Positions 24,505-62,682 of a stretch of DNA of 63,346 nucleotides are shown one piece after another (the stretch's first letter is position 1; each line of letters begins with the position of its first letter). Under the pieces are notes generated by a model. The model did no database searches. It saw only the letters and a program-made list of their open reading frames with translations, and was not told where the DNA came from. This DNA comes from a virus (taxonomy: Duplodnaviria; Caudoviricetes): positions 1-63,346 of the IMG/VR virus record IMGVR_UViG_3300033153_008411. One strand, given 5' to 3'. Both the position numbers and the translations under genes were made by a program.

Positions 24505-24512
24505 TATTTATA
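24505..24512 (-). promoter_or_regulatory. T4-type late promoter TATAAATA
   Basis: Exact motif about 28 nt upstream of the 24477 start. Confidence 0.6.
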
Positions 24513-24771
24513 AGACCATTAAATCTATTGCAATTCTTATTGTTTTGTAATCTGCGCCCTCAAATATTACTTTATACCAACAGTATTTATCTTTGATCTC
24601 TTCTTTATCGACACCTTTAATCCGTGGTCGTTTCATTTCATCCCAAAAATCTTTTTCGATCTCTTCTATAGTCAACGGCGTACCCAAATCTTTAGCGTAT
24701 TTAACGAAAGCTTCACAAAATTCTTTAGGTTTTAGCCCTTTATCGTACGGCGATTTATGTGTTTGTTTCAT
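24508..24771 (-). CDS. Family A (YCW) small protein
   Basis: YCWYKVIF; ends IAIDLMVL. Confidence 0.7.
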   Translation of the reverse strand: MKQTHKSPYDKGLKPKEFCEAFVKYAKDLGTPLTIEEIEKDFWDEMKRPRIKGVDKEEIKDKYCWYKVIFEGADYKTIRIAIDLMVL

Positions 24772-24989
24772 AAAAATCTCAATTCAAGTGCGACCCTTTC
24801 TACTGAACTATTTCTATTTTCAAGAAGTTCTACGTACCAGCAATATATATCAATTAGCTCATTTACTCTATCTGGTTTTTCTTTCATACGCATTTCCAAA
24901 TATTCACCAGCTCCTTTCATTGTAACATTATCAAATATTTTATTGTGGTCTTTAATATATCTTTCAACCTCATCTTTTTTTGTGAACAT
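24768..24989 (-). CDS. Family A (YCW) small protein
   Basis: YCWYVELL; ends VALELRFL. Confidence 0.7.
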   Translation of the reverse strand: MFTKKDEVERYIKDHNKIFDNVTMKGAGEYLEMRMKEKPDRVNELIDIYCWYVELLENRNSSVERVALELRFL

Positions 24990-25228
24990 TATAAAAGCCT
25001 CAATTCTATTGCTGCTAGTTCAACCCTGAAATCTTTACCTTCAAGAATTTCTTTATACCAACAGTATATGGTAAATAGTTGATCCTTCTCATCTCCTTCT
25101 TTGGTACTTCTCAAAACCTTAAAAATTTCTTCTTCAACTCTTTCCATTGTTAAGTCTTTGCCTGCATTTTTAAAATTCTCTGCATTTTCAAGAATTTCTT
25201 TTTTATTTTTTATCATATTATTGTTCAT
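24989..25228 (-). CDS. Family A (YCW) small protein
   Basis: YCWYKEIL; ends AAIELRLL. Confidence 0.7.
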   Translation of the reverse strand: MNNNMIKNKKEILENAENFKNAGKDLTMERVEEEIFKVLRSTKEGDEKDQLFTIYCWYKEILEGKDFRVELAAIELRLL

Positions 25229-25683
25229 ATTAATCTGAATTCAAGAACAGATTTTTCAAGCTCATAATTACCACCACACAAAATAACTTTGATCCAACAG
25301 TACGCTTCAATAGCTCGTATTAAATACATAATATTCGATTCACCGAGCTTCCTTGCGTGTTCAAAATATATATCGTAATCGTGTTCTAATTTTTTCCATG
25401 TAACTTCAGTTCCACCTTCACGCATACAATCAATGACTGTTTTCATTCTTTCACGAGTAATAGGATCACTAATATTTGTCATTTGATCTTTATCTCCTGA
25501 TATAGTTAATATTGTATCTGAATAACACCATCTAAACACATTTAATTCACTCTGTCCAGCTATTTTTAGTGCATCTAAAAGATTATTCACCGGTTTGTAC
25601 CAAGTTCCAACTGGAAATTTAGTACCTTTTGAGCCGTACTGAATGTTGATATTTACAGATAAGATAACTTGATCATTTTTCAT
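25225..25683 (-). CDS. Family A (YCW) protein with N-terminal extension
   Basis: YCWIKVIL; ends SVLEFRLI. Confidence 0.7.
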   Translation of the reverse strand: MKNDQVILSVNINIQYGSKGTKFPVGTWYKPVNNLLDALKIAGQSELNVFRWCYSDTILTISGDKDQMTNISDPITRERMKTVIDCMREGGTEVTWKKLEHDYDIYFEHARKLGESNIMYLIRAIEAYCWIKVILCGGNYELEKSVLEFRLI

Positions 25684-25928
25684 AATAATTGAAACTCTAA
25701 AGCGGCTTTTTCTATATTGTAGTCAGCGTCAAATAGAATTTCTTTCAGTAAACAAAATGCGTGAATGTAAAATTCTAGTTTACTTTTACTAGATTTAGTT
25801 TGATTAAAAAATAAAAAATAATCTTTTTCGATCTCTTCCCATGTAGGCATACTATTTGCTTTTCTTCGTTGAATAATTATTTCTTCTAGACTTTCTTTAG
25901 TTAAGGATTCTATGTTGTAATTTTTCAT
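25680..25928 (-). CDS. Family A (YCW) small protein
   Basis: FCLLKEIL; ends AALEFQLL. Confidence 0.7.
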   Translation of the reverse strand: MKNYNIESLTKESLEEIIIQRRKANSMPTWEEIEKDYFLFFNQTKSSKSKLEFYIHAFCLLKEILFDADYNIEKAALEFQLL

Positions 25929-25930
25929 TG

Positions 25931-26167
25931 TTATAATAACCTGAACATTAAAGCTGTCAGTTCATTTTCGAAGTTTTTACCATCACTGAGAATGATTTTG
26001 TACCAGCAATAAGCTTCTAATACTTCTTGCTCTGGTTGATAAGAAGATACATCAATCATATTTTTAAAACGATCTTCAACCATTTCGAATGTTAAATCTT
26101 CTTCGTGTGATTTATTATACGCCTTTATTTTATCTATAGCTTGTCTTCTGGTTACTTTTCGTTTCAT
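25931..26167 (-). CDS. Family A (YCW) small protein
   Basis: YCWYKIIL; ends TALMFRLL. Confidence 0.7.
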   Translation of the reverse strand: MKRKVTRRQAIDKIKAYNKSHEEDLTFEMVEDRFKNMIDVSSYQPEQEVLEAYCWYKIILSDGKNFENELTALMFRLL

Positions 26168-26403
26168 AATTCTAATAAATCATTAGCTACTCTTACTGTT
26201 TTATAATTTCCACCATTAAGTATAACAATAAACCACGCATAGGCGCATCTGACACCTTCTTTTACCTCTTCTCTTTCATCACCGTTAATAATCTTGATAT
26301 AATCTCTTTTTATTGTTTCTAGATTTGGTTCACTACCCTTTGAATAGTGATCTTGAATCCTTGCTAATACGTCTGTTTTTGTTGAAAGAAAAGCATCAAT
26401 CAT
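26164..26403 (-). CDS. Family A (YCW) small protein
   Basis: Start revised to MIDAFL at a TAATG overlap; YAWFIVIL; ends VANDLLEL. Confidence 0.65.
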   Translation of the reverse strand: MIDAFLSTKTDVLARIQDHYSKGSEPNLETIKRDYIKIINGDEREEVKEGVRCAYAWFIVILNGGNYKTVRVANDLLEL

Positions 26404-26657
26404 TACATCTCCATAAAATCTAATATTATTTTGTGTTTTTTGTAAGTTCCACCCAACATGGCTACTCTCCAGCAAGCAATTATTTTATTACGTGTATCTA
26501 TACTGTAACGATTTTTTAATACATAACGCCAATTATTTTCAATTGTATTAAGAGTGTCATAAATATCACCGTCTGCTAAATCTTCCTGGATTTCTTTTAT
26601 CATTTTTTCAGGAGTAATTTCTTTCCAATAGTCATCTGATACTGTCTCTCTTTTCAT
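26403..26657 (-). CDS. Family A (YCW) small protein
   Basis: ACWRVAMLGG; ends IILDFMEM. Confidence 0.65.
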   Translation of the reverse strand: MKRETVSDDYWKEITPEKMIKEIQEDLADGDIYDTLNTIENNWRYVLKNRYSIDTRNKIIACWRVAMLGGTYKKHKIILDFMEM

Positions 26658-26965
26658 TACATTTCCATTAGTTCTAAAGCTAGTAGCTCGTGCTCTATGC
26701 TACCATACCCACGGTATATTATTTTGATCCAGCAATAGGTTCTACGAATATATTCTTTATCCCAATCGCTTTCTGATGGACTACTTGATCTATTTAAGAG
26801 ATATTTGTACTCTTTCTCTAATCGCTCAAAAGTGTATTTCTCTCCTCTTGCCTCTTCCAAAACCAACAATCTTGCTTCTACATCTGCTCTTGTTGGTTTT
26901 GGTTCGAATGCAATAGGATCAAATTTTGGTCTGATACCCATCTTAATCAAACAAAGATTTGTCAA
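26657..26965 (-). CDS. Family A (YCW) small protein
   Basis: YCWIKIIY; ends LALELMEM. Confidence 0.7.
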   Translation of the reverse strand: MTNLCLIKMGIRPKFDPIAFEPKPTRADVEARLLVLEEARGEKYTFERLEKEYKYLLNRSSSPSESDWDKEYIRRTYCWIKIIYRGYGSIEHELLALELMEM

Positions 26966-27308: not shown

Positions 27309-27950
27309 TTATATTAGAATTGCTTCAATTCGTGGATCTTCTAATTCTTGTACGACTTTGATATTTACTTCATCGTCATCGTAAAATTTGATGTGCTCAA
27401 ATCCCATCCGATTAGCAAATATTTCTTGTAGAACAAATGCTTTCAGATATTCATTTCTTAGTATCCTTAAATCAAGATCTGTTAATTCATTCAATGAATT
27501 TATTGTTGCTTCATCTCGAACAGCGAACGTGTACTTCTTTCTGAGTTGTGTTCTTGGAATTGGTTTTAAGACTCCGTGTGGATCTTTGTATTCAAGGATA
27601 GATTTTAAGCCGAAAAGGACACCCCTTTGATCACCCCTAGCAGTCAATATACCGATTTTATCACCCCGGTTAACTGCATTGTCCAATTCGGCAAAAATAT
27701 TTTTGTTTACTTTTCCGTTTGCTATGGTTTTGTATACATTGTCAAACCCCTGAAAATCGTCGTAGTCAACTTCGGCGTCTTCTGATAGGGTTTGTCGGAT
27801 TTCAGCCCACTCTCTTGTTGTTGCTTCGTGCCATTCTTCTGAAAGTGGATCTTTGTACCTTATTTTAGCTGATGAGTGTATCAAACAATCATCGACATCA
27901 AATACTGAAATAATTTTTTTTTCTTGTATGTATTCTTTGAAATTCTCCAT
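27309..27950 (-). CDS. HAD-superfamily phosphatase (RNA-repair HAD-like)
   Basis: Motif I VFDVDDCL, motif II GILTARG, motif IV KFYDDD. Confidence 0.75.
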   Translation of the reverse strand: MENFKEYIQEKKIISVFDVDDCLIHSSAKIRYKDPLSEEWHEATTREWAEIRQTLSEDAEVDYDDFQGFDNVYKTIANGKVNKNIFAELDNAVNRGDKIGILTARGDQRGVLFGLKSILEYKDPHGVLKPIPRTQLRKKYTFAVRDEATINSLNELTDLDLRILRNEYLKAFVLQEIFANRMGFEHIKFYDDDEVNIKVVQELEDPRIEAILI

Positions 27951-31803: not shown

Positions 31804-32034
31804 TTACAGATCAATTAATTTTAGAGCTTCTATTTTAGCTGGTTTAACAGTCGGCATAGGATAAGAGTTAATAATACTCAATTTAATAGAAAGAGGTTGA
31901 TCGGGATCATCTAAAAAACAGTTGTCGTGCCACCCTGTTGTTTTTGTTGGATTTGTTTCCAATGAAGCGTACACAACATCTTCATTAGAGATTTCTTTTT
32001 TAGAGATCAGTTTTTTACAATATATACATATCAT
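31804..32034 (-). CDS. Family B zinc-finger small protein
   Basis: CIYC...WHDNC; ends ALKLIDL. Confidence 0.7.
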   Translation of the reverse strand: MICIYCKKLISKKEISNEDVVYASLETNPTKTTGWHDNCFLDDPDQPLSIKLSIINSYPMPTVKPAKIEALKLIDL

Positions 32035-32333
32035 AATTCACCTAATTCGTGCGAAACAATTATTGATTTTAATTTAGAAAATTCTCTGATAATATTTTTT
32101 TCTGTTTCGTTCAATTTTTTTCCGTATTTTTTATCACTTAGTAAGTTGTAGTATTGTTGAATTGCACGATTTTTTGTTTCTGGTTCTATATTTTTGTTTT
32201 TAAAAAAGCACTTAGGGTGAAACGGTAATCTTTTATCACCTATTGAATCTATCGGTTGATATGCTCGAATGTCTCCATCGTATATTCGTTTTTTGCATTC
32301 TCGGCATATTACGTATGTTTTTTTCTCTTTCAT
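32031..32333 (-). CDS. Family B zinc-finger small protein
   Basis: CREC...FHPKC; ends SHELGEL. Confidence 0.7.
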   Translation of the reverse strand: MKEKKTYVICRECKKRIYDGDIRAYQPIDSIGDKRLPFHPKCFFKNKNIEPETKNRAIQQYYNLLSDKKYGKKLNETEKNIIREFSKLKSIIVSHELGEL

Positions 32334-32575
32334 AGCATTGTAAATTCGAGTTTTAGTAGTTCTTTTTCGAATAAGTCAAGCGCATTTTTATATTCAGGAT
32401 CACGAATTCTGCGATAGTACAAAACAAATTCTTGTTTATCTTTTATTGGAATATTATTTGATTTCAGGTAACATTCAATGTGATATTGATGACTATATAA
32501 ATGTTGAATACGTACACTACCTTCTGGAATCAATGCGCCACAAAATTCACAATGATCATCTAATTCTTCTTTCAT
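32330..32575 (-). CDS. Family B zinc-finger small protein
   Basis: CEFC...YHIEC; ends KLEFTML. Confidence 0.7.
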   Translation of the reverse strand: MKEELDDHCEFCGALIPEGSVRIQHLYSHQYHIECYLKSNNIPIKDKQEFVLYYRRIRDPEYKNALDLFEKELLKLEFTML

Positions 32576-32811
32576 AAATCCATAAAATTTAATGATTTAA
32601 CTTCAATCGGATAATTAGCGAATATATCTGGATGTTCTTCGATTACTTCTTTTTTTAACTCTGTACTAACCGCTGTAGTCATTAAAAAGCATCTATGATG
32701 AAAATGTTTGTCTTTAGAAATATCACCACTTTCATCTTCAATGAGTAATGCATCGTCGGTATCTTTTTTGGGAATCTCTTTATTACAATAATCACAAAAA
32801 TATTTTATCAT
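32572..32811 (-). CDS. Family B zinc-finger small protein
   Basis: CDYC...FHHRC; ends SLNFMDL. Confidence 0.7.
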   Translation of the reverse strand: MIKYFCDYCNKEIPKKDTDDALLIEDESGDISKDKHFHHRCFLMTTAVSTELKKEVIEEHPDIFANYPIEVKSLNFMDL

Positions 32812-33062
32812 AATTTTGAAAAGCTTAGGTTTAAAAGCTCACCGTTAGTAATTTTTCCAATTTTTATGTAATGTTCTATCTCTTCGTCTGTCAGCAAAAT
32901 CACTTCACCTTTTTTAAACCGACACCACCTATGTTCAGCACGAATACCGAAATTATCAGAATCTACTTCCGGGAAATAATAATACGCACATTTTGTATTA
33001 TTTGGTATGTTAGGCTCTACCGGTTCGCCACATATTTCACATTTAAGTATCTTATCATCCAT
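32808..33062 (-). CDS. Family B zinc-finger small protein
   Basis: CEIC...EHRWC; ends NLSFSKL. Confidence 0.7.
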   Translation of the reverse strand: MDDKILKCEICGEPVEPNIPNNTKCAYYYFPEVDSDNFGIRAEHRWCRFKKGEVILLTDEEIEHYIKIGKITNGELLNLSFSKL

Positions 33063-33292
33063 TACAGATCCATTAATAGATAAGGTGCCATTTCTTTCTG
33101 TAAGAAATTAAAATGTTTAGGAAAATTTTTTAAAGCACCGAGTTTTTCTTTCGGTGGTACATTTTCACTCAATACAAAACATTTATAGTGATAATGAAAA
33201 TGTTTATGTTCATCTTCACTTCTTTGCGGATTGAAATTGATATAAGATCCAGTAATTTCTTTTTTACAATGATCGCAATTTATAGTTATCAT
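33062..33292 (-). CDS. Family B zinc-finger small protein
   Basis: CDHC...YHYKC; ends PYLLMDL. Confidence 0.7.
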   Translation of the reverse strand: MITINCDHCKKEITGSYINFNPQRSEDEHKHFHYHYKCFVLSENVPPKEKLGALKNFPKHFNFLQKEMAPYLLMDL

Positions 33293-33519
33293 ATTGTTCT
33301 AAGCCGGATAGCTACAAGCTGACTTTTAGTGAATACACCATCTTTTATATATTGTGCTTCAGCTTCTTTGTTTTTGTAAACAAAGATGGTATGACACGGT
33401 GTACACATAACATCGTACGGTTTATTTTTATTAACAAAATCATTTTCATTGCGCATCCAGTGTACGGCATTGGTTAAATCTTTTCTGCAATAATAACAAT
33501 ATATTTTAGGATCTGTCAT
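33289..33519 (-). CDS. Family B zinc-finger small protein
   Basis: CYYC...CTPC; ends AIRLRTI. Confidence 0.7.
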   Translation of the reverse strand: MTDPKIYCYYCRKDLTNAVHWMRNENDFVNKNKPYDVMCTPCHTIFVYKNKEAEAQYIKDGVFTKSQLVAIRLRTI

Positions 33520-33737
33520 AATAACCTTAATTTAAGGCTAAGGATTTCAGCTTCAGTGAAAATACCTTTTTTTATTCGATCTTTTTTAACCGATTCATTA
33601 TTTAATAAAAAAATCAGTACACAATCATTGTGGGCTTTTTGAAATGATGTTCCATCATACGTACCACTACTATAATCATCATCATCCCATAATTTCTTTT
33701 CACAAATGGAACACGAACCTATTTTTTTGTATCTCAT
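33516..33737 (-). CDS. Family B zinc-finger small protein
   Basis: CSIC...AHNDC; ends SLKLRLL. Confidence 0.7.
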   Translation of the reverse strand: MRYKKIGSCSICEKKLWDDDDYSSGTYDGTSFQKAHNDCVLIFLLNNESVKKDRIKKGIFTEAEILSLKLRLL

Positions 33738-38436: not shown

Positions 38437-38437
38437 T

Positions 38438-50151: not shown

Positions 50152-50159
50152 TATTTATA
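50152..50159 (-). promoter_or_regulatory. T4-type late promoter TATAAATA
   Basis: Exact motif about 20 nt upstream of the FmdB gene; could also drive tmRNA. Confidence 0.5.
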
Positions 50160-53659: not shown

Positions 53660-53886
53660 TAGAAATTCCGTTTTTTGGTTTTGAGTCTTAAGTACCCGGA
53701 TAAAAGTTGCCTAATTAATTTGAATACTATTGAACTGTCTATTTCCATTTTATATTGAACACTCATAGACGTGTTATAACCATTATCGTGATGGAAAAAA
53801 ACAGTCAAACCATTAGGATTATCATTAATGTACGTTACTTGCGTATCTTTTACCTTAACCAGTATTACTGTCGGTGTTGTCATCAA
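53659..53886 (-). CDS. Family F small protein
   Basis: FKLIRQLLSGY. Confidence 0.6.
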   Translation of the reverse strand: MMTTPTVILVKVKDTQVTYINDNPNGLTVFFHHDNGYNTSMSVQYKMEIDSSIVFKLIRQLLSGYLRLKTKKRNF

Positions 53887-54223
53887 GTTCCTTTTTCCAA
53901 TTTAACATCAGTTCACCAATTTCTTCGATATGATCTTCATTTCGAAATATGAATTCAGTGCTAATTTCTAAATGACCCTTGAATAAAAATAAAAATCTTT
54001 GCTTAATTTGTTTCCATAATTCTTTCAAACTACGGTCGTAAATTCTTGAAGATAGATTTGTATAGATAATAAAAGATGTCATTTTATCTTTTTTATCTCT
54101 GGAAATTTCAAACTCTAGTGAATGTTTTTCGTACTGGCAATCGCACGTTGTCCGGTAGACAATAGTATCCGGGTATTCGAATACGCATTCTTTTTGTGGA
54201 CGTTTATTATTTATTGTTTTCAT
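53855..54223 (-). CDS. Hypothetical protein
   Basis: CDC...H; LWKQIKQRFLFLFKG. Confidence 0.6.
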   Translation of the reverse strand: MKTINNKRPQKECVFEYPDTIVYRTTCDCQYEKHSLEFEISRDKKDKMTSFIIYTNLSSRIYDRSLKELWKQIKQRFLFLFKGHLEISTEFIFRNEDHIEEIGELMLNWKKELDDNTDSNTG

Positions 54224-54461
54224 TATTTTTTTTATAAAAATTTTTTGATTCTACGTAAGCACGTAGTAGTTGTTCTATAAGTGTTTCATTTTCAGCAAGA
54301 CTTAATTCAAAACTTTGAAAAGAATGATTTTTATAGTCATCTATATGCACAGTTGTTATAATATCTGAAGGCCAAGCATACACATCACCGTCTTTTCCCT
54401 TCACATATTTGACATCATTGAATACTGAAAAACTTTTATTATGATTTTTCTTCCCATTCAT
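54207..54461 (-). CDS. Family F small protein
   Basis: ETLIEQLLRAY. Confidence 0.6.
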   Translation of the reverse strand: MNGKKNHNKSFSVFNDVKYVKGKDGDVYAWPSDIITTVHIDDYKNHSFQSFELSLAENETLIEQLLRAYVESKNFYKKNNENNK

Positions 54462-54786
54462 TAATCATCCTTGGAAAAGATTTTGTATTAGGATCATAAT
54501 TCTCATTTTCGATTACAACAATTTTTTTATGTAAAGCAAATGCAACTCCCATATCAAAATGTGATCCTTGACTATCTGAATTATAAAAAATGTGAACTTC
54601 ATCGGCGTATTTGATAGCTTCCATATTTTCTGTACAGATATCATAACCACACGCATCTTGTTTTGTATCACGTTTTGGAAGATGAACCTGATGACCATGA
54701 TGCTCTAAAAAATCTACGTAATCTTCCATCATTATTTGATTTTCTCTGGTAGCATCTCTGACACTACCGATAATAAAAATTTTCAT
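54439..54786 (-). CDS. Nucleoside 2-deoxyribosyltransferase-like protein
   Basis: MKIFIIGSV, VHLPKRD, AIKYADEV, SQGSHFDMGVAFALHKKI. Confidence 0.75.
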   Translation of the reverse strand: MKIFIIGSVRDATRENQIMMEDYVDFLEHHGHQVHLPKRDTKQDACGYDICTENMEAIKYADEVHIFYNSDSQGSHFDMGVAFALHKKIVVIENENYDPNTKSFPRMINEWEEKS

Positions 54787-55125
54787 TTATTCCTTGCATT
54801 TGATTGGTAAATTAACCGAAGCGGCCCATGTTCGTTGCTTTGGGTTTATTTTGTACATTTGCACTAATGAAACCGCTGAAGCACCAAAACCACCACTAGC
54901 ATTCGCTATATAAGCAAATTTGTAACTGTCAATGCACACTGAACCGTACTGAAATGTTGAATGAACATGGTTATCATGCTTTTTAATGGTATTGACATAC
55001 CCTGATACTTTAAATTTTACAGGAATTTCAGCTTTAACAAAATTAACACCTATAAATGTCAAAGCAACTAACATAAAACTCAAAATTATAAACGATCTAA
55101 TTATTGCATCTTTTTTCCAGTACAT
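54787..55125 (-). CDS. Exported/membrane-anchored hypothetical protein
   Basis: Start revised to MYWKKD after an AAGGA RBS; N-terminal hydrophobic signal. Confidence 0.55.
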   Translation of the reverse strand: MYWKKDAIIRSFIILSFMLVALTFIGVNFVKAEIPVKFKVSGYVNTIKKHDNHVHSTFQYGSVCIDSYKFAYIANASGGFGASAVSLVQMYKINPKQRTWAASVNLPIKCKE

Positions 55126-55132
55126 TTTTTCC

Positions 55133-55420
55133 TTATGAAATAAATTCACCTGATCGAATTTGAGATTCAACACGATTGTCTTGATCTCGTTTATGCTGAT
55201 CCCATTCATGAAGTTCAGTGTCTAATTCATTTTTTGATTGACTATCAAGTGCTTCGACTTGTGGATCACTAAAAAGCCCATGTAAATTTGGAGCTGTCAA
55301 TTGTTTTTTAAGTGGTGTTTTACACTTCGAGCATTTCTGTTCGTCTTGATAATTCTTTACTTTCAAAAATATTTCTTCTGTGTTTTCGCAATTCGGGCAT
55401 TTGTAATTATAAATCGGCAT
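55133..55420 (-). CDS. FmdB-family zinc ribbon protein
   Basis: MPIYNYKCPNC...KCSKC..LKKQLTAP. Confidence 0.8.
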   Translation of the reverse strand: MPIYNYKCPNCENTEEIFLKVKNYQDEQKCSKCKTPLKKQLTAPNLHGLFSDPQVEALDSQSKNELDTELHEWDQHKRDQDNRVESQIRSGEFIS

Positions 55421-55421
55421 C

Positions 55422-55583
55422 CTATTCCTCTTGTTCTTTACAGAATTCTTTAATAAAATTTCTTAACCATTCATTATTTTGCTTCAAATCTTCAATGTGT
55501 TTTTCTTTTTCTTTTAACAGAATTTTATTTTCATAAACAAATTGAATGCAAAGAAGTATTAAACCCGCAATAATAAAAGCCAT
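55422..55583 (-). CDS. Small membrane-anchored coiled-coil protein (53 aa, not in the ORF track)
   Basis: MAFIIAGLILLCIQFVYENKILLKEKEKHIEDLKQ...; fills the gap and overlaps the primase stop by TAATG. Confidence 0.55.
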   Translation of the reverse strand: MAFIIAGLILLCIQFVYENKILLKEKEKHIEDLKQNNEWLRNFIKEFCKEQEE

Positions 55584-56563
55584 TATAATTGTAACCTCAC
55601 TTTTGCTTGAAATCCTGTAAAAATGTTATCTTTAATTATACTCGTGATTTCTTCCTTTGTAAAGCCATTCTGCATAGCCTTATTTGCATCTTTGTACTTA
55701 GACATAGACCTAGGCCAACAAAAGATCTTATGCCCATCGTCGGCGTATTTTAAGGATTTTTCTTTTCCCGGTTTGTCATTGTCAAAACAAAAAACAATAT
55801 CGGTAAGCTCAGACAGAAAGCGATTATTAATATCGGCACCCAAAGATGCAATAGCGTTATCTGTGGATAAGGAGTCAATGATTGACTCAAATATGAAGAC
55901 TGTGCTGCTTCTATCCACGTTAAAAAATCCATAAATTTTCCAACCGGCGTCAACAACAGTATGAAAAAATTTAGTACGTAAAGACCGACCCTGAAAACCA
56001 TAAACTTTTTTACCTTTATAGAATGGAAAAATAAGCATATCACGATAAGGAAGTAAAATTACTTCACTCTTTGTATTTACTATTGATAGATCAGGTGGAG
56101 AATAGAAAAGCCTATCAACGATTTTATTAGGGATTTTTCGCTTTTGGCAATATTCCACTACCTCTTCAACTTCTTGAGCCGGAATAAACCGATCATCTAA
56201 ATTGATAAAAGGTGGAATGTAAGACTCCACCTGACCACTTTCTTTAAAAATTTTTTTCTTTTTTCCTATCTCTCCTTTTTTTAGCTTCTCAATATATCCT
56301 TTCTTTTTTTCGATTAAAAAATCAGAGTAAATTGTTGGATAGTGCAACATCAAAAGATTCTCTAAAGATGTCGATCTAGGGCAATTGTGACAATAATAAG
56401 TCACGTAATTTTTCGACTGATCACCCCAAAGAATAAAACCACGTTTTTTCCGACCTTCAGAAGATCCTTCTTTACAGTACGGACAGGATAGGTTTAACCC
56501 CCCTGATATCGGCGTTGTATTCGGTACTCTATTCGCGTATTTAATCTGATCGTATTTGTCCAT
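55583..56563 (-). CDS. DNA primase (T4 gp61-like)
   Basis: CPYC..G..KKRG, YYCHNC, IFPF..GFQGRSL, FESIIDSL, FCFDND, KDAN. Confidence 0.92.
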   Translation of the reverse strand: MDKYDQIKYANRVPNTTPISGGLNLSCPYCKEGSSEGRKKRGFILWGDQSKNYVTYYCHNCPRSTSLENLLMLHYPTIYSDFLIEKKKGYIEKLKKGEIGKKKKIFKESGQVESYIPPFINLDDRFIPAQEVEEVVEYCQKRKIPNKIVDRLFYSPPDLSIVNTKSEVILLPYRDMLIFPFYKGKKVYGFQGRSLRTKFFHTVVDAGWKIYGFFNVDRSSTVFIFESIIDSLSTDNAIASLGADINNRFLSELTDIVFCFDNDKPGKEKSLKYADDGHKIFCWPRSMSKYKDANKAMQNGFTKEEITSIIKDNIFTGFQAKVRLQL

Positions 56564-56564
56564 C

Positions 56565-56795
56565 TTAACAAGCTAGATAACATGTTCCTTCTAAATTTTC
56601 GTTTAATTCTTCAACAACATCTGGTGTACAAGGTAATGTTTTTATTTTACCAACACCGAATGCTATTGATTTACAGTCTTCAGTACATTTTACCACATGT
56701 TCACAATGTAAGCAACAGATGTTCGATTCGTACCGGCAAAAACTCGGTCGAGTTTCAGCTGAACACCCTAATAATTTTGTATTTAGATTTGGCAT
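56565..56795 (-). CDS. Small Cys-rich protein
   Basis: Nine Cys including CCLHC. Confidence 0.55.
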   Translation of the reverse strand: MPNLNTKLLGCSAETRPSFCRYESNICCLHCEHVVKCTEDCKSIAFGVGKIKTLPCTPDVVEELNENLEGTCYLAC

Positions 56796-56799
56796 TTTT

Positions 56800-57066
56800 T
56801 CATATTTTATTTAAGGCTGTTTCAGCCTTGGTTAATAAATCAGTCACGGAAGCTAATAGCTTCTTTTTCTGTTCAAAATCGGTTTGTTTATCGTGTTCAT
56901 CGTACAGTAAAAACTCGTATAGGTCTATAGCACTTAATACTGCTAACTTGTATTTGAGTATTTCTGGTGATGATATATCCGAAAGTTCATCAAACCGATT
57001 AAACAGATTTTCAGTGGAAATTTTACATTCTCTGATTTCTTCTTTTAAGTCTTTCCACTCTTTCAT
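56800..57066 (-). CDS. Hypothetical helical protein
   Basis: GGAG RBS directly after the tRNA-like element. Confidence 0.6.
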   Translation of the reverse strand: MKEWKDLKEEIRECKISTENLFNRFDELSDISSPEILKYKLAVLSAIDLYEFLLYDEHDKQTDFEQKKKLLASVTDLLTKAETALNKI

Positions 57067-57080
57067 TAATACTCCAGTTT

Positions 57081-57197
57081 AGGCAAGCGGTTAGCCTGTT
57101 ACCCATACCTAGGGCGGTTTAACCCGACTCCCTTTTATTCAGGATGCTTCCCTAGGCCGAGACTCGAACTCGTTAAGACCACTTAAGGTTCTTACCC
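57081..57197 (-). ncRNA. Circularly permuted tRNA-like structured RNA (YrlA/Y-RNA-like topology)
   Basis: T-arm CGAG-TTCGAGT-CTCG, then CCTAGGG pairing with downstream CCCTAGG, then D-arm-like GGT-AACAGGCTA-ACC; closed by GGGTAAG/CTTGCCT. Confidence 0.55.
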
Positions 57198-57391
57198 GTT
57201 GTTAAATACCATTCTAATAATGGCATTAATTCTTCCATCCATCCTTCTCTAGCATTAGGTATATATCGAATAGGATGCTGATCTAGTTGATTGAGATCGT
57301 AAGTAGCAATATTTCTAAATAATTCATCAATCCTATTACATTTATAATACTCTTTCCAAAGATCAACTTTTTCACGTAATGATACGGCCAT
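57173..57391 (-). CDS. Family G small protein
   Basis: NRIDELFRNIATY...WMEELMPLLEWY. Confidence 0.65.
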   Translation of the reverse strand: MAVSLREKVDLWKEYYKCNRIDELFRNIATYDLNQLDQHPIRYIPNAREGWMEELMPLLEWYLTTGKNLKWS

Positions 57392-57394
57392 TTT

Positions 57395-57583
57395 TTATCT
57401 AGCCTTTCGAAGTTCTAACCATCGATAAAATAATTTCTTTATTTCTTTTTTCTTGACAGTTCCATCTAATAATTCGAATTTATCTGTTTCTTCGTTTATG
57501 AATGAAACACATACAATAGTATTCAAATGAGATACAATTTTTGAGTGTACATCTAACAACGCAATAAAATTGTCTTTACGCAT
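57395..57583 (-). CDS. Family G small protein (divergent)
   Basis: KKEIKKLFYRWLE. Confidence 0.55.
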   Translation of the reverse strand: MRKDNFIALLDVHSKIVSHLNTIVCVSFINEETDKFELLDGTVKKKEIKKLFYRWLELRKAR

Positions 57584-57878
57584 CAGGAAAATTCCTTTGA
57601 GTATTAGGATATTTTCTTAAATTTTTATTTTTTAGCATCCATTTAAATAATTGGTGTAATTCGATTTTCCATATATTCATGAGATTTTCAAATCCTTTTG
57701 GATTATTTTTATATCCAACCCATGTTACATAATCATATATGGCGCGGCATAGATCGTAGATTCTACTTTCTTTGTGCGCCCATTCTGGTGTGCATCCTAA
57801 TGGTAGTTTTTCATGGTTGTCTGAACCACTTAAAGTACGTATTTTTGTCCCTTTTACATTAGCTGGTATAGACATCAT
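57576..57878 (-). CDS. Family G small protein
   Basis: SRIYDLCRAIYDY...WKIELHQLFKWM. Confidence 0.65.
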   Translation of the reverse strand: MMSIPANVKGTKIRTLSGSDNHEKLPLGCTPEWAHKESRIYDLCRAIYDYVTWVGYKNNPKGFENLMNIWKIELHQLFKWMLKNKNLRKYPNTQRNFPDA

Positions 57879-58230
57879 TATTCCTTATTTTAACTTCATC
57901 GTTAATCCACCATCTAAATAAAATTTTTATTTCTTCTTTCCACATATCTACAAGTTCGATTCGCATCTCTTCGAAATTTTCCGGGATATCCTTATTCCAT
58001 TCTAAATAAGTGATTTGGTACTTCTCAATACTTTCTAGCAAAAGATTTATTCTGTTTGTATGGTGCTCGTATTCACCCATTAGTTCCTGTCTTGGATCTT
58101 TGTTAATAGAATTCCATTTAACTTTAAGTTTACCTTTACCTTTGAATTTTTGCACTTTCGCTTGAATTTTTTTTATCATGGCTTTTTCTCTAGCCAATTT
58201 CATCAATTGATTGTGTGTCAAACGCACCAT
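57859..58230 (-). CDS. Family G small protein
   Basis: Start revised to MVRLTH; NRINLLLESIEKY...WKEEIKILFRWW. Confidence 0.6.
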   Translation of the reverse strand: MVRLTHNQLMKLAREKAMIKKIQAKVQKFKGKGKLKVKWNSINKDPRQELMGEYEHHTNRINLLLESIEKYQITYLEWNKDIPENFEEMRIELVDMWKEEIKILFRWWINDEVKIRNNDVYTS

Positions 58231-58250
58231 ATCATTTCTTAAACGGATTA

Positions 58251-58299
58251 AGGGAGTCAACACAAGAACAGCAAGTTTAAAACTTTGTGTTGACTCCCT
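58251..58299. repeat. Perfect 15-bp inverted repeat (hairpin) after the AAA ATPase gene
   Basis: AGGGAGTCAACACAA (58251-58265) and TTGTGTTGACTCCCT (58285-58299), 19-nt loop. Confidence 0.8.
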
Positions 58300-58311
58300 A
58301 GGAGACAATCT

Positions 58312-59496
58312 TTATGTGGACTTAATTTCTTTAGTCATCTTGATAACCGCTTCGAACAATGTATGATCATTCTTATCAACGTCATCAAGTACATCCACAA
58401 TCATTCCGGCATCATAAGTATTAGCCATTTCAGCAACTTCTTTCATCATGACTATACTCATGTCTTTATCAGCTTTGGCAACTGAACTGGCAAGCTTACT
58501 AAAGGTTCCAATTAAGTCTTTCAACTTTTTGTCACCTTTGGTATCTTCTTTATGAGTCATGTACCGGTCAATGTACTCGTAGGCCATCGCCATCGTAAAT
58601 ATAAACATGTTAGTGGAATCGGTTTTGAACTTGAAATTCTTTCTGTCAAAAACCGCCGATGTATCGATTTTTGAGTACAGTTCGTAATACATTGAAAATT
58701 CTCGGCCACCTTCAGGACCGACATGACCACCAGCACGAAACATAACTTCTGGCAGTTTGACATTATCGCTGGTACGCTCAACTGAGCTATCCAAAGCGAG
58801 TGAAAATTTATGCCAAGAACGTGGTGAACCCCACGGCTCTTTTGAATTTTCATCTTCGTGGAAGAATTTCAGGTTTGACTTCTTAGCCAGAAAAGTGGTG
58901 ATGATCGGATTAATGCTGTGTTTCATTGCCCACTGTCTCCAATCTTCAAAGTCAGCAACTACGTTATAAAAAGCAACTCGGTTGGTAATGGCAGAAAGCA
59001 TGGTTTTTGCACCAGCTCTTGCACCAGGATTACCAGCAAGCATAATGTGCGTATTCCTTGGAAGATCGTAACCTTTCAGGGAATAATCGGTAAACAACTG
59101 AAAACAGAATTTTTGGTTTTCAGGACTCGCAAGGTGAAAGTCATCCATAAAAAGGATCACACCTTTATGTTTTTCGGAAAGTTCCATCAACTCAGTAATC
59201 ATGTCAGGGAAAGTCCAGCGGGTACCTTCAACCTTTTCACCGTTGACAACGATCTTATGAAACTGAGGCAGACCGGTCATTTCTTCGATGGTTTTGGTTG
59301 ACAAATGGACGGTCAATATCGCCCAATCAACAGCTTTGACTTTTGCTTCTAACATCTTGGTTTTACCAGCACCGGGGGGAGATACAACGAATGGTACGGC
59401 TGGTAATGCTTCCGGGTTCCACGGGTTATTCCGCATAGCATCGTAGAACAGCATTTCAAGGGTTTCTTTCAATGACATCGTGGTGTTAAGTTCCAT
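58312..59496 (-). CDS. MoxR-like AAA+ ATPase
   Basis: SPPGAGKT, MTGLP, ILFMDDF, IMLAGN, AITNR, SPRSW. Confidence 0.85.
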   Translation of the reverse strand: MELNTTMSLKETLEMLFYDAMRNNPWNPEALPAVPFVVSPPGAGKTKMLEAKVKAVDWAILTVHLSTKTIEEMTGLPQFHKIVVNGEKVEGTRWTFPDMITELMELSEKHKGVILFMDDFHLASPENQKFCFQLFTDYSLKGYDLPRNTHIMLAGNPGARAGAKTMLSAITNRVAFYNVVADFEDWRQWAMKHSINPIITTFLAKKSNLKFFHEDENSKEPWGSPRSWHKFSLALDSSVERTSDNVKLPEVMFRAGGHVGPEGGREFSMYYELYSKIDTSAVFDRKNFKFKTDSTNMFIFTMAMAYEYIDRYMTHKEDTKGDKKLKDLIGTFSKLASSVAKADKDMSIVMMKEVAEMANTYDAGMIVDVLDDVDKNDHTLFEAVIKMTKEIKST

Positions 59497-59544
59497 ATTT
59501 TTGTCTCCTATAAGACGGTTTTAGATTAAAAAATGTTATAACTA

Positions 59545-59574
59545 ATTAAAACATAACTCAAATGTTTCTGTCAA
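59545..59574 (-). promoter_or_regulatory. Early promoter for the AAA ATPase
   Basis: TTTTACTTGACAGA...TGTTTTAATTAG (N18), matching 62050-62079; AGGAGACA RBS. Confidence 0.65.
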
Positions 59575-59592
59575 GTAAAAAATGAAATTATT

Positions 59593-59703
59593 TTAAAAAT
59601 ATTTTGCTTTGTAATATTGCATTGAAAGTTTGTGCATCTCAATACAATTCAGGGCTAAATCTTGATGAGCCAACAATATACGAGTTGCGTCGAACCAAGT
59701 CAT
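59593..59703 (-). CDS. 36-aa peptide (not in the ORF track)
   Basis: AGGAGATAGAAAT-ATG; MTWFDATRILLAHQDLALNCIEMHKLSMQYYKAKYF. Confidence 0.45.
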   Translation of the reverse strand: MTWFDATRILLAHQDLALNCIEMHKLSMQYYKAKYF

Positions 59704-59714
59704 ATTTCTATCTC

Positions 59715-59924
59715 CTATAGGGTTAAGTCAACAACAATAGATGCACCATCAAACCTTGCACGTTCTTTCAAGGCCATTTCAAAATCATCGGCCAGATCGC
59801 CGGTTTCGAGATCATCAATGTATTCGTCACAATCAACATCGTAATCAGAAGAGGTATCAGCGTCACTAACACAAGCAAGTGTGCAATCTGTACAGTCATC
59901 TTCACAATAAAGTTTGTAAGTCAT
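59715..59924 (-). CDS. Small acidic Cys-containing early protein
   Basis: AGGAGACA RBS and its own promoter; CEDDCTDCTLAC. Confidence 0.6.
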   Translation of the reverse strand: MTYKLYCEDDCTDCTLACVSDADTSSDYDVDCDEYIDDLETGDLADDFEMALKERARFDGASIVVDLTL

Positions 59925-59977
59925 TTTCTGTCTCCTAAAAGGTTTGTTCGAATGGTTTAATAATTAAGTACACCTTC

Positions 59978-60006: not shown

Positions 60007-60206
60007 GACTTTTTTTTATCTAAATTGAATATTTTTGCGTGATGCTCTGTAATATTTTTTAAAGCTAGGTGAATTCCGATAGCCATTGCTTTATCAATTG
60101 ATTTGGATTTTTCATCAACAACTTTTGTGTAATCTTCTACCATGTTGATTAATGTTTTATGAAATTTTTCAATTTTATCTCTGTCTTTTGTTTTAACTGA
60201 TATCAT
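60003..60206 (-). CDS. Hypothetical protein
   Basis: Coupled ORF (ATGA overlap). Confidence 0.55.
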   Translation of the reverse strand: MISVKTKDRDKIEKFHKTLINMVEDYTKVVDEKSKSIDKAMAIGIHLALKNITEHHAKIFNLDKKKS

Positions 60207-60625
60207 AATTTCATTAGCTCGATGCTTGGATGTGGGTTTCTTATCAAATCGGTGACATCCGCTTTAACAGCTATTTTTTGCATTTCCAAAGACGGATACT
60301 CAACGTACCGGATTAAATGCGGCTGTTCTTTGATTAATAAATCAATTGTTTTCGGTTGAACATTTTCTAACAAATCAAAAAGTTCTTTCACGCCTTTTCT
60401 CATTGGGTATTTTGGAAATGTTACTGTTGGTTCGTTTTGCAATAATACTTTAGTTGTTGTTACAGCGATACCAACACGAATACCTTTTTCATTAAATATA
60501 ATTTCACCCGGTTTAAATTCACGTTTACCGGTGTATTTTTGGATAATAGATTGTGAAAAACCCACTATACCCGTATCGACTACAGTGGTTTCAACAGTCA
60601 AATAATCTGATTGTTTAGGCGGCAT
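60203..60625 (-). CDS. Hypothetical protein with a DUF4116-like C-terminus
   Basis: IRYVEYPSLEMQKIAVKAD; ends NPHPSIELMKL. Confidence 0.6.
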   Translation of the reverse strand: MPPKQSDYLTVETTVVDTGIVGFSQSIIQKYTGKREFKPGEIIFNEKGIRVGIAVTTTKVLLQNEPTVTFPKYPMRKGVKELFDLLENVQPKTIDLLIKEQPHLIRYVEYPSLEMQKIAVKADVTDLIRNPHPSIELMKL

Positions 60626-62006
60626 TTTGCAGATTCCTAGGAATCTTAACCGTAATTGGTTCGTTATCCACGAACTTTGGTACTTGACCGATCATATGCC
60701 GACCTTCGGGAATCATGATTTGAATCGGAATATCTTCAACCCATCCGTATTGCTTGGATTGAACTAATTCTTCGATATCAGATTCAAAGTCAGTGATGAT
60801 AAGAACAATGCCGATTCCTTCATCTTCGGCGTACAGCTCTTCGATCCTATCAAAAACCTCTTTATGAGAAGTTCCACCACGACCTTTAACTTGTAACAAA
60901 TCTTCGACTGAAATTTCACCTTCATAATATTTTTCATCAAGAATATTCCAATCGTGCTTGATAACGTACATATTCTGGAAAAGATCATCACAGGCTTTTA
61001 CAGCACCCGCCGCAACTTTTAATTCGGTGTCACTAATTGATCCAGATGAATCAATTACACTTATAGCACCGTCTAGCAGCTCTTCTTCACCGTGACCGGA
61101 AACAGTCAAACCGATTCCTTGGTAAATTCGATTTAAACTTCTCCAAGATCGGTTTTCCATACTTGGCATCATTTTCCGGGATATTGCTCTTGCTAACAAC
61201 TGTTCAGTAGGGATGTCAACTCGAATCATATCTTCTAGCATTCCTACAACCGCACCAGAACCGGCACCACGACCACGTTCACCATCAGCTTCATGAGTGT
61301 GGCGGATTTCGTTCAATGCACGATCAACTAAATCTTTCTCAGCATCACTCATATCACCGGGCGCACTTCCATCTTGTTTTTCATCACCATCACCATCACC
61401 ATCACTTTTACCACTACCTTTAGGATCTTTGATATCGATATCGATGGTAACTGAGTTACCTTGCTTGTCAGTAAAAGTTACCTGATTCCCATCACCTGAC
61501 ATTGTGACAGTAATTTTATTTTGCTCTTGTTTTTTCTCAAGATATTCATAAGCCTCTTCAACCGTGATTTTTGAGTCAATATCATTATCACGAATAAGAA
61601 AAATTTTATCTTGTGGTACTTTAATCGGTAAAATACCATCATTGGCATCTTGAAGTAAAACAGTGTTGATTACATGATCACCGGCAAGATTAAACAAACC
61701 GGGATGCCGACCACCACGCCTTTGTTGGTGCTTATGTAGCGGATGAAGCATTTCATGAAGCAATGCAAAACGAATTTCATTTACAGCCCACTTATCAACT
61801 AAGTCTTCGTGAATCATAATATGAAATTTTCGTTTGATTGGATTGAAGAAGACGCAAGCTGTCTTACAGAAATGTTTTTCACCTTTTTCAAGCGTTATAT
61901 CGTAGTGATACAGGATAGTTTTGAATAGTGAAAATTCTTTCTTAAGCATGATTGACATAATTGCCAACTTTAGCTTTTCGTCTAATGGTGTCAAACTTTC
62001 TGCCAT
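60615..62006 (-). CDS. Metallopeptidase plus VWA-like protein (DUF2201-type)
   Basis: LLHEMLHPLHKH (HExxH), FNLAGDHVIN, VIDSSGSIS (MIDAS), GRGGTSH, IITD. Confidence 0.85.
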   Translation of the reverse strand: MAESLTPLDEKLKLAIMSIMLKKEFSLFKTILYHYDITLEKGEKHFCKTACVFFNPIKRKFHIMIHEDLVDKWAVNEIRFALLHEMLHPLHKHQQRRGGRHPGLFNLAGDHVINTVLLQDANDGILPIKVPQDKIFLIRDNDIDSKITVEEAYEYLEKKQEQNKITVTMSGDGNQVTFTDKQGNSVTIDIDIKDPKGSGKSDGDGDGDEKQDGSAPGDMSDAEKDLVDRALNEIRHTHEADGERGRGAGSGAVVGMLEDMIRVDIPTEQLLARAISRKMMPSMENRSWRSLNRIYQGIGLTVSGHGEEELLDGAISVIDSSGSISDTELKVAAGAVKACDDLFQNMYVIKHDWNILDEKYYEGEISVEDLLQVKGRGGTSHKEVFDRIEELYAEDEGIGIVLIITDFESDIEELVQSKQYGWVEDIPIQIMIPEGRHMIGQVPKFVDNEPITVKIPRNLQNAA

Positions 62007-62049
62007 TTTTTGTCTCCTTTAGAGATTGATTTTTTACTTGGTATGCCTA

Positions 62050-62079
62050 ATTAAAACACAAACAAAATAACTCTGTCAA
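62050..62079 (-). promoter_or_regulatory. Early promoter for the VWA-peptidase gene
   Basis: TTTTACTTGACAGA...TGTTTTAATTAG (N18); AGGAGACA RBS. Confidence 0.65.
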
Positions 62080-62087
62080 GTAAAAAT

Positions 62088-62273
62088 TTATAGAATTACA
62101 AAAAAGAATTCACGGTGAAGAATACTTTTACTTGCGTACTTATATAGTTCTGGATATTTTTTATGTATTGCAAGTTGTTCTTTGAGTGTTTTATTCATAA
62201 ATAATTCATCAACTTCTTCTCTGGTAGGGAAAAATTGAACTTTACCCCGTTCAGGTGGGAATTTTATTTTCAT
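62088..62273 (-). CDS. Small protein with the shared C-terminal tail
   Basis: Ends REFFFVIL. Confidence 0.55.
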   Translation of the reverse strand: MKIKFPPERGKVQFFPTREEVDELFMNKTLKEQLAIHKKYPELYKYASKSILHREFFFVIL

Positions 62274-62434
62274 AATAATCTAAACCGAATCATAGTCATT
62301 ATTTTTTTATCACGTACAGCTTTTTTTCTCCACGACATAAATTCTTCAAAGGCTGTATCAAACGGAGTTTTTTTATCAAGTACAACAAAATCTCGGAAAT
62401 ACTCAAATAAAGCACATTCTTCGGCGATTGTCAT
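62270..62434 (-). CDS. 54-aa protein with the shared C-terminal tail (not in the ORF track)
   Basis: MTIAEECALFEYFRDF...TMIRFRLL; ATGA overlaps on both sides. Confidence 0.6.
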   Translation of the reverse strand: MTIAEECALFEYFRDFVVLDKKTPFDTAFEEFMSWRKKAVRDKKIMTMIRFRLL

Positions 62435-62682
62435 AATAATATAAATTTTGCTTCTGGTGTTAAATAATCTTCATCATAAAAAACATCAGGATTGTTTTTA
62501 ATTAGTTCAAGCTGTTTTTTAGTATCGGACGTATATAATTGCACATGGAAAAGAATTCGTTTATCAATTTCATCTGTGATTTCTTTTGAAAGTTGCTTTG
62601 TTAATTCATCGTCAAATTCAGATTTAAATTTTTGAGTCATATCAATTGAATATTCAACTTTTAATTTTCTTGATTTTATCAT
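62431..62682 (-). CDS. Small protein with the shared C-terminal tail
   Basis: Ends EAKFILL. Confidence 0.55.
   Translation of the reverse strand: MIKSRKLKVEYSIDMTQKFKSEFDDELTKQLSKEITDEIDKRILFHVQLYTSDTKKQLELIKNNPDVFYDEDYLTPEAKFILL

Follow-up and report, generated by a model that had tools for sequence, protein, structure and literature searches.

In phage T4, the otherwise unrelated proteins gp43, gp55 and gp33 carry interchangeable C-terminal tails on a flexible linker, by which they bind the gp45 sliding clamp, according to the passages on these tails in PMC2988020. The tails read SLDFLFG (gp43), SLDFLYEAND (gp55) and TLDFLL (gp33) in the T4 record. We analyzed a 63,346-base phage contig (IMG/VR record IMGVR_UViG_3300033153_008411; this whole stretch of DNA is called the window), which has a GC content of ~33% and carries nearly every gene on the minus strand, and found that 46 of its 117 open reading frames (ORFs) end in one short acidic-hydrophobic C-terminal tail. 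The window resembles the T4 clamp system in that, in the same kind of phage, unrelated bodies share one short hydrophobic-acidic motif at or near the C-terminus. In T4, however, three proteins share it, and in the window 46. A preliminary description of this DNA had held that no phage system of this form was described, which is too strong a statement given that the tails of gp43, gp55 and gp33 form a small-scale precedent in the part of PMC2988020 that treats them. Relative to hub-docking tails of the T4 type, the new features are the scale and the dual coding of the last codons. We found no description in the open-access literature of a phage-wide C-terminal tail shared by many small proteins.

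Other described systems are similar in part. An acidic-hydrophobic extreme C-terminus serves as a docking handle in the tip of the bacterial single-strand-binding protein (SSB) and in the acidic end of T4 gp32. In SSB-type tails, one tail has many partners, whereas in the window many proteins have one tail. T4 gp32 ends in LDDLLNDL, which has much the same character as NDLLEL and similar window tails; the gp32-like protein of the window itself ends in SLDED. The effectors of type IV (Dot/Icm) secretion comprise hundreds of unrelated bodies with a loose acidic/hydrophobic C-terminal signal for one receptor complex. These signals are the nearest analogy in logic to the idea of delivery, but they belong to bacterial secretion and are looser than the window tail, and the window tail showed no connection with any machinery for secretion or packaging. 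Further, the hyperplastic regions of T4-type phages hold arrays of small novel early ORFs, shuffled via repeated promoter/stem-loop cassettes at gene boundaries. Those cassettes are non-coding DNA, whereas the element in the window is coding; it is conserved at the protein level while its synonymous sites drift, and exact identity between families does not exceed 12 nt.

The ORF set was obtained by tiling the minus strand with ORFs of at least 40 residues, which gave 111; seven dropped ORFs were recovered and one nested ORF was removed, giving 117. Each C-terminus was scored with an 8-residue family-weighted position-specific scoring matrix (PSSM) from which the family of the scored ORF was left out, and the thresholds were percentiles of the scores at internal positions. 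The 99th percentile was exceeded by 46 of the 117 ORFs (1.2 expected) and the stricter 99.9th percentile by 27 (0.12 expected). Thus, the shared tail is confirmed, in about 40% of the ORFs of the window, and the eye count of about 50 in the preliminary description was close; all 15 tails that it quoted as examples were found at C-termini of minus-strand ORFs. The register that it gave is present as well, but the motif starts further back, with a Glu at -10, and the consensus is E(-10)-phi-x-A(-7)-phi-[D/E](-5)-[L/F](-4)-[M/I/R/G](-3)-x-L(-1)-stop (phi, hydrophobic). The last residue is Leu in 39 tails, Met in 4, Ile in 2 and Arg in 1. In the first gene set, Leu was terminal in 45 of 111 ORFs, compared with a background of 8.3% Leu, and the pattern [DE][LF]..[LM] was found at 22 of 111 C-termini versus 34 of 18,563 internal positions (0.2 expected, p ~5e-38). 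Neither AT content nor tight packing nor ATGA overlaps account for the enrichment. All 46 tails lie within 24508-62682, and 44 of the 46 carriers are at most 152 residues long. The structural genes had been described as mostly tail-less, and indeed no tail was found among the 19 ORFs of the structural block at 1-24477, nor among the 19 ORFs at 53010-59924.

We compared the constraint on the tail at the protein and DNA levels. In 42 tail genes, nucleotide information was codon-periodic at position -7 (GCN; 0.97, 0.96 and 0.13 bits at the three codon positions), -5 (0.82, 0.65 and 0.02 bits) and -4 (1.15, 1.69 and 0.22 bits), and likewise at -10, whereas at -3 and -2 it was even over the three codon positions, with an excess of G/A. 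When two families had the same residue at -10 to -4, they shared the codon in 53.7% of cases versus 47.4% expected from genome usage; in the unconserved comparison segment at -20 to -11 the values were 53.9% and 52.9%. Codon use was genome-like at Ala -7, Asp/Glu -5 and Leu/Phe -4, and the longest exact DNA match between families that was anchored at the stop codon was 12 nt. The periodic information and the near-genome codon sharing therefore show old protein-level conservation of -10 to -4, without recent copying of DNA, and on these codon statistics the seven positions are selected as protein.

In contrast, codon sharing at -3 to -1 was 74.1% versus 33.9% expected, and the codon of Leu -1 was TTA in 36 of 42 cases versus 47% in genome usage. 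The tail ends exactly where the next gene begins. Its last three codons include that gene's overlapping ATG as well as a purine-rich stretch that binds ribosomes weakly, and the overlapping start (TTATGA) constrains them as DNA too. An ATGA overlap was present at 33 of 46 tails versus 9 of 71 other ORFs (Fisher p 1e-10), and in the first gene set the last codon was TTA in 25 of 32 ATGA overlaps versus 10% expected among NNA codons (p 2e-19). The remaining 13 tails have no ATGA overlap (7 TAATG, 6 none). Terminal Leu or Met is kept under these other geometries, encoded by CTG, CTA or ATG before TAATG and by TTA before a free TAA. Pairing with the anti-Shine-Dalgarno sequence grew stronger from random sites (-1.82 kcal/mol) through tail junctions (-2.83) to the other coupled junctions (-3.62); a strong Shine-Dalgarno site hidden in the tail end was ruled out, since pairing was weaker than at the other coupled junctions.

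These results bear on the possibility that the tail is a by-product of translational coupling, that is, the protein image of a ribosome-binding site and ATGA, or, in a variant, a nascent peptide that tunes termination and re-initiation. Such an origin agrees with the excess of ATGA among the tails, with TTA as the predominant terminal Leu codon, with the elevated codon sharing at -3 to -1 and with the flat G/A-rich information at -3 and -2. A coupling signal alone predicts nucleotide conservation without periodicity, which fits the last three codons only and fails for -10 to -4, where third positions are free and codon sharing is near neutral; a pure DNA signal is refuted there. Further, 13 tails do without the overlap, and 22 coupled junctions, 9 of them ATGA, are tail-less. 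The weaker anti-Shine-Dalgarno pairing points the same way, as does Pelagibacter phage HTVC008M, which has the same GC content and tight packing and lacks the tail. We give coupling or a nascent-peptide effect very little credence as the origin of the tail.

The tail carriers form the following arrays and single genes.

24508 to 26965, minus strand: family A array; 9 of 9 ORFs (24508-24771, 24768-24989, 24989-25228, 25225-25683, 25680-25928, 25931-26167, 26164-26475, 26403-26657 and 26657-26965) pass the 99th percentile; tails AAIELRLL, AALEFQLL, IAIDLMVL, LALELMEM and IILDFMEM.
31804 to 34362, minus strand: zinc-ribbon-like Cys/His array of 10 ORFs, 8 of which pass (31804, 32031, 32330, 32572, 33062, 33289, 33516 and 33734); the tails of 32808 (LSFSKL) and 33958 (KWESM) are degenerate.
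35757 to 36191, minus strand: singleton of 144 residues, ending in HTRDLMLL after a Pro-containing linker.
37596 to 39643, minus strand: mixed array; 7 of 7 tail ORFs pass the 99th percentile.
37853, 38438 and 39039, minus strand, in the mixed array: PFYR family, with TARDLMEL, TAEDLMEL and TANGLMNL.
38149, 38695 and 39344, minus strand, in the mixed array: a further group of three, with AFTEL, IIKDFLEL and LFIAL.
37596, minus strand, in the mixed array: singleton, with HIFMVL.
43051 to 44408, minus strand: five putative membrane proteins (43051, 43302, 43544, 43810 and 44085), 5 of 5 passing the 99.9th percentile; tails YQEFMKL, IKEFMHL, AHDFMEL, IKDFQEL and IKKFIQL, placed after the last hydrophobic segment and a basic stretch.
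45111 to 47764, minus strand: PTxxE array of 11 ORFs, 10 of which pass; 46001-46276 (QLGNL) is under the threshold; the typical end is PTxxExxA-phi-x-LGDL.
47707-48789, minus strand: helical-repeat protein of 360 residues, with PAIDLMSM; phrog_5925 is the evidence for the repeat pair.
48860-49246, minus strand: helical-repeat protein of 128 residues, with VVDLMDM.
50155 to 51069, minus strand: singleton of 304 residues, with QAATLMEL; a TATAAATA late-promoter motif shares bases with its TTA-TAA end.
60203 to 60625, minus strand: third member of the repeat family, of 140 residues, with PSIELMKL; it lies between the gene of a DUF2201 VWA/metallopeptidase and the region of a MoxR-type ATPase.
62270-62434, minus strand: singleton of 54 residues, with MIRFRLL.
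62431-62682, minus strand: singleton of 83 residues, with PEAKFILL; a fragment of a T4-type major capsid protein.

With the last 14 residues removed, iterative profile clustering placed the bodies in 12 groups. The tail-less family profiles aligned with a probability of at most 0.4% by hhalign in 21 of 21 pairs, whereas with the tails 10 of the 21 pairs aligned their extreme C-termini in register. In a comparison of 51 hand-grouped ORFs in 14 groups, identity between families was 23.1% over the last 10 residues versus 6.3-7.2% in the two preceding 10-residue windows and at the N-termini, and 6.6% among non-tail C-termini (n=66). In all seven families compared, conservation was higher in the tail than in the body. 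A similarity of ~14 residues, [T]-x-x-E-phi-x-A-phi-x-L-x-x-L, joins family A to the PTxxE family and extends to part of the zinc-ribbon family, and hhalign of the zinc-ribbon against the PTxxE family reached 26.8% once tails were included. A Pfam match was obtained for 1 of the 46 carriers, 62431-62682, in which residues 2-51 match positions 145-198 of 376 in PF07068 (Gp23; 33.7 bits, cut-off 24.4) and which also matches phrog_138; in PHROGs, the repeat proteins matched nothing but unnamed families. The tail follows beta-rich bodies in 35757, 50155 and 38695, and in the repeat family it resembles the truncated start of one more repeat unit. Two relatives of the zinc-ribbon bodies are tail-less, 49925-50131 (ending ..YSKENK) and 55133-55420 (ending ..SGEFIS), both on the minus strand, and are natural comparators for the tail-bearing members.

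When the PTxxE profile was searched exhaustively against 1.84 billion representatives, 13 proteins were obtained, 11 from the window and two from outside it (P0017 and P0018). The assemblies that contain the two outside proteins have no contig longer than 1,242 bp, and both proteins retain the tail (..AGFRLGDL in P0017 and ..AIKDFMDL in P0018), and the F-M-D-L variant of P0018 is the form typical of other window families. The family A profile matched the window's own proteins only (5 of 5). Related loci were sought with the rIIA-like, gp32-like and P0018 proteins and, in metagenomes, with the DUF2201 protein, and none was found; a PTxxE sub-alignment had no match in metagenomes or IMG/VR, and neither megablast of 24 kb against the phage collection nor tblastn of a repeat protein gave a match. 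One locus obtained via P0017 (L001) had a GC content of 60% and a dissimilar organization and was discarded as spurious. In HTVC008M (GC 33.4%), the strict tail was found in 0 of 207 ORFs (loose form 3, Leu-ending 13), and the pairwise identity of the last 10 residues of small ORFs was 6.5% versus 12.0% in the window, all ORFs being unselected. The strict tail was also absent from both strands of 16 other viral loci, 9 chosen by the tail-codon pattern GAYTTAATGGAWTTATGA and 7 by ribonucleotide-reductase similarity of 46-55%; the 9 were the single-match loci from a scan of IMG/VR with GAYTTAATGGAWTTATGA, none was tail-enriched, and they were kept as negative controls. Across these searches, the tail is specific to this lineage.

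AlphaFold2 models were built with paralogue alignments for one member each of the PTxxE family and family A. Both were predicted as four-helix bundles: PTxxE 47032-47241 with a predicted local distance difference test score (pLDDT) of 95 and helices at 2-19, 21-35, 39-53 and 58-68 of 69 residues, and family A 24989-25228 with a pLDDT of 85 and helices at 9-21, 28-41, 46-63 and 67-78 of 79. The tail is helix 4 in both models, with a pLDDT over the last block of 93 (PTxxE) and 88 (family A). The tail is therefore predicted to be no floppy appendage in these two families. Foldseek of the PTxxE model against the PDB and BFVD gave no match at E <=0.001, and the two family profiles gave nothing below E 0.17 against PDB sequences. 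The preliminary description had proposed unrelated bodies, each variable, joined to a constant C-terminal helix. The pattern and the protein-level selection bear this out, and the 12 groups are unlinkable by profile; on the other hand, the bundles disfavour a free signal peptide, and family A and the PTxxE family, the two largest, may share a fold.

The tail is thus a module selected as protein, and the reading that we favour, at slightly less than even odds, is that it is a shared interaction module. The acidic-hydrophobic C-terminal helix would have been kept as a common interaction surface, and many fast-diverging early proteins would engage the same partner through it. A candidate partner would be the phage sliding clamp or another replisome hub, as with gp43, gp55 and gp33. 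The terminal TTA-TGA would have made ATGA coupling easy to evolve, and the tight link between tail and overlap would therefore be explained. The more ambitious form, a docking code in which ~46 early proteins of unrelated folds, zinc-ribbon, membrane, helical-bundle and capsid-fragment proteins among them, are plugged into one hub (either the sliding clamp of the phage itself in a toolbelt role or some other single receptor) via a helix of 8-10 residues, is possible, though we hold it with considerable doubt. Docking to the clamp or a replisome hub is the most specific candidate, although by itself an unlikely one and no more than a lead.

In class pattern and in register, the window tails DLMEL, DFMEL, ELMEM, DLMDM and DFLEL agree with tails of the gp43 type. 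Among ends of gp43 homologues, 36 of 120 are [DE]-phi-phi-[DE]-phi-stop (for example ASLFDMFDF, ATLFDMFDM and ASLTDLFDI), and the most distant gp55 homologues end in KG[LIV]EKF[IL]E[EVA], such as KGLEKFIEE, with Phe at -4 and Ile or Leu at -3; the HTVC008M tails are SNLEDFF (gp43) and SKLEYFMQ (gp55). The gp43 tails differ in having Phe at -3 and Phe, Ile or Trp as the last residue, where the window tails have Met at -3 and Leu at the end. A class-level model in a reduced alphabet, built from 79 unique gp43 tails with the consensus acid-phi-phi-acid-phi, scored 13 of the 117 C-termini in the window higher than the 99th percentile of internal positions (0.86% expected), 8 of them at the maximum, in a test chosen post hoc. 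As in the sliding-clamp-binding motif, a short motif stands at the C-terminus, here in 46 of 117 ORFs and 12 body groups and in a T4-type context; the flexible linker of that motif is lacking in the two families modelled. Four TATAAATA late-promoter motifs, on the coding strand ahead of late-type genes, point to gp55-type late transcription. A complex prediction of three copies of T4 gp45 with the PFYR alignment scored 0.08 versus a mark of 0.32; the clamp was a stand-in from another phage, and the result weighs neither way. The gp43-tail model also flagged two small ORFs of T4 itself (NC_000866) without an assigned function, 46.2 and 47.1, which end in AYCEVFDI and ISMTVLDI, and hydrophobic-acidic ends may occur among T4 small proteins beyond the three known clamp ligands.

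Several points weigh against a shared interaction module, and against the clamp as its partner in particular. The tail sits inside a compact bundle in the two modelled families, which account for 20 of the 46 ORFs, whereas the T4 clamp tails are on a flexible linker. Such a predicted placement is at least as compatible with a structural helix as with a docking peptide, if not more so. Ala -7, Leu/Phe -4 and Leu -1 would share one helical face and Glu -10 could be a cap, such that folding may explain part of the conservation. The class-level clamp test was picked after the data had been seen. With the residue-level PSSM of gp43 tails, 2 of 117 window C-termini exceeded the 99th percentile and none the 99.9th, compared with 4 of 354 in control loci; because the class model passes and the residue model fails, the likeness to clamp tails is physicochemical rather than residue-specific. 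Forty-six clamp ligands, five membrane proteins among them, would be without precedent. The 63 kb of the window hold no clamp, polymerase, gp55 or gp33, and the evidence base is one contig plus the short-contig proteins P0017 and P0018 (1,242 bp or less). Two unannotated proteins of ~214 residues each were considered for the clamp: 27309-27950 is HAD/DUF2608-like, and 34818-35462 was unassignable.

Because of the two bundle models, a serious rival is that the tail is an ancestral structural helix. The carriers would then be one old, fast-diverging superfamily of tandem duplicates whose N-terminal parts were replaced or altered past recognition, the helix being kept for folding, packed on the helix before it, and its end frozen by dual coding, without any common partner. 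The two modelled families have similar helix lengths and a confident tail helix 4, the genes stand in tandem arrays, and the ~14-residue similarity, with its hhalign probability of up to 26.8%, crosses family boundaries. The tail of the repeat family also looks like part of its own repeat, and the last three codons are constrained as DNA. The tail-less bodies, however, did not align above 0.4% in any of the 21 pairs, and one packing solution is unlikely to serve carriers that are zinc-ribbon-like, membrane-type, beta-rich or a capsid fragment. Further, the acidic positions -5 and -2 are of a surface type and are conserved across families, and relatives of the bodies (49925 and 55133) exist without the tail. 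On balance we find a purely structural origin doubtful. Turnover was also weighed, the tail being in that case recognized by a protease of the host or the phage, as a C-terminal degron or as a protective cap, and giving the early proteins a common lifetime. Such a signal would be C-terminal with a hydrophobic last residue and shared by early-type genes behind sigma-70-like promoters, as the tail is, and the middle of the region contains the phage's own gene for a transfer-messenger RNA (tmRNA), so C-terminal tagging matters in this system.

49289-49660, minus strand: one-piece tmRNA (Rfam RF00023, full-length, 56.9 bits with a gathering score of 47, E 1e-19).

This gene occupies a 406-nt 'gap' in the small-gene region and was missed by ARAGORN; the acceptor stem contains a G3-U wobble, CCA is present at the 3' end, and the 5' end of the gene extends into the stop codon of ORF 49653-49925. 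The encoded tag is ANNSDYSLNFAAIAA (tag frame 49516-49563), which is Ala-rich (..NFAAIAA). tmRNA tags and Lon degrons are likewise short C-terminal sequences that give many proteins one fate, whereas the window tail is gene-encoded, acidic-hydrophobic and Leu-ending. The tails ([DE]-[LF]-x-x-L) do not resemble ANNSDYSLNFAAIAA, which makes a degron less likely. Where PMC11986505 describes the C-terminal degron of Lon (x-[LI]-[LIV]-H), a terminal His after two hydrophobic residues is invariant and an Asp near the end protects substrates; not one of the 46 tails has a terminal His, and positions -2 and -5 are often acidic. In two families, moreover, the tail is packed in a bundle. The degron options of the preliminary description thus lost ground, and we consider a turnover or stability signal distinctly improbable. 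It had also named the MoxR/VWA chaperone as a possible receptor, and neither the MoxR-type ATPase nor the DUF2201 VWA/metallopeptidase showed any link with the tail. Lastly, the tail might direct proteins to the prohead or another delivery device for the next host. Signals for secretion and packaging have this appearance, a single signal carried by many small proteins that are otherwise unrelated, and one carrier is a capsid-protein fragment. The promoters, however, are sigma-70-like and early rather than late, five carriers are putative membrane proteins, 46 species of cargo are very many, and the known capsid-targeting sequences of T4 are N-terminal, so that packaging, too, is very hard to credit.

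If the tail is an interaction handle, the tail peptide could name the hub used by a whole set of host-takeover proteins and would be a search key for such proteins in related phages. The small early genes of large phages are mostly without function in annotation and are usually handled singly, and here 46 of them share one constrained C-terminal module. Were the hub a sliding clamp, the toolbelt idea of T4 would extend from three ligands to dozens; were the docking code true, the phage would contain a system like that of effector signals, in which the last codons double as the start region of the next gene. Further, the tail is a natural example of dual coding, in which the last three codons serve the protein end and the next start and the preceding seven evolve as protein only.

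By its genes, the window belongs to a distant T4-like marine myovirus, whose nearest cultured relatives are only ~22-29% identical over gp6; these are marine cyanomyoviruses, Pelagibacter phage HTVC008M and Methylophilales phage Melnitz. The baseplate set comprises gp6-like and gp25/53-like wedge genes and a gp5-like hub-lysozyme. Further genes encode a gp32-like single-strand-binding protein, a Cas4-like nuclease, an SLT lysozyme, an rIIA-like protein, a class II ribonucleotide reductase, a Toprim primase-like protein, the MoxR-type ATPase and the DUF2201 VWA/metallopeptidase. The tmRNAs of Melnitz-group phages are two-piece forms in the passages of PMC9004378 that concern them; the one-piece form in the window therefore suggests a host outside the two-piece lineages. 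The free-standing capsid fragment at 62431-62682 could, as a speculation, be a decoy for capsid-sensing host defence.

Promoters of the TTGACA type were read directly in the intergenic gaps at the ends of the small-gene arrays. A scan of the window with the pattern TTGACA-N16-18-TANNNT gave 8 matches versus 5.0 expected, which is not significant.

Gaps after 62088, 59715, 48860, 45111 and 31804, minus strand: promoters of the form CTTGACAGA...TTTTAAT/TATAAT.

A near-identical leader, TTTTAGGAGACAGAAA or TAAAGGAGACAAAA, lies upstream of four genes without the tail and is a strong shared ribosome-binding region.

40512-42656, minus strand: rIIA-like gene, preceded by the leader.
58312-59496, minus strand: MoxR-type ATPase gene, preceded by the leader.
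59715-59924, minus strand: ORF of 69 residues, preceded by the leader.
60615-62006, minus strand: DUF2201 gene, preceded by the leader.

The PHROGs name of the last of these (463 residues) is 'HNH endonuclease' (phrog_1314), which looks misleading because Pfam gives a DUF2201_N metallopeptidase and a VWA-like domain. On the same strand, a homing-endonuclease-like gene (phrog_655) at 22915-23547 is flanked by baseplate genes. The intergenic stretch at 57067-57172, also on the minus strand, is 106 nt long and GC-rich and contains a T-arm-like GTTCGAGTC string; neither ARAGORN nor Rfam at the gathering threshold reported anything there, and the stretch could be what is left of a tRNA, or else a structured RNA of some other kind. 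Finally, two of the four TATAAATA motifs (24512 and 50159, minus strand) arise where a tail-bearing gene (24508-24771 and 50155-51069, respectively) ends in TTA-TAA and ATAAAG comes directly after. Thus, at these two sites the terminal Leu codon and the stop codon double as part of the late promoter of the next gene.

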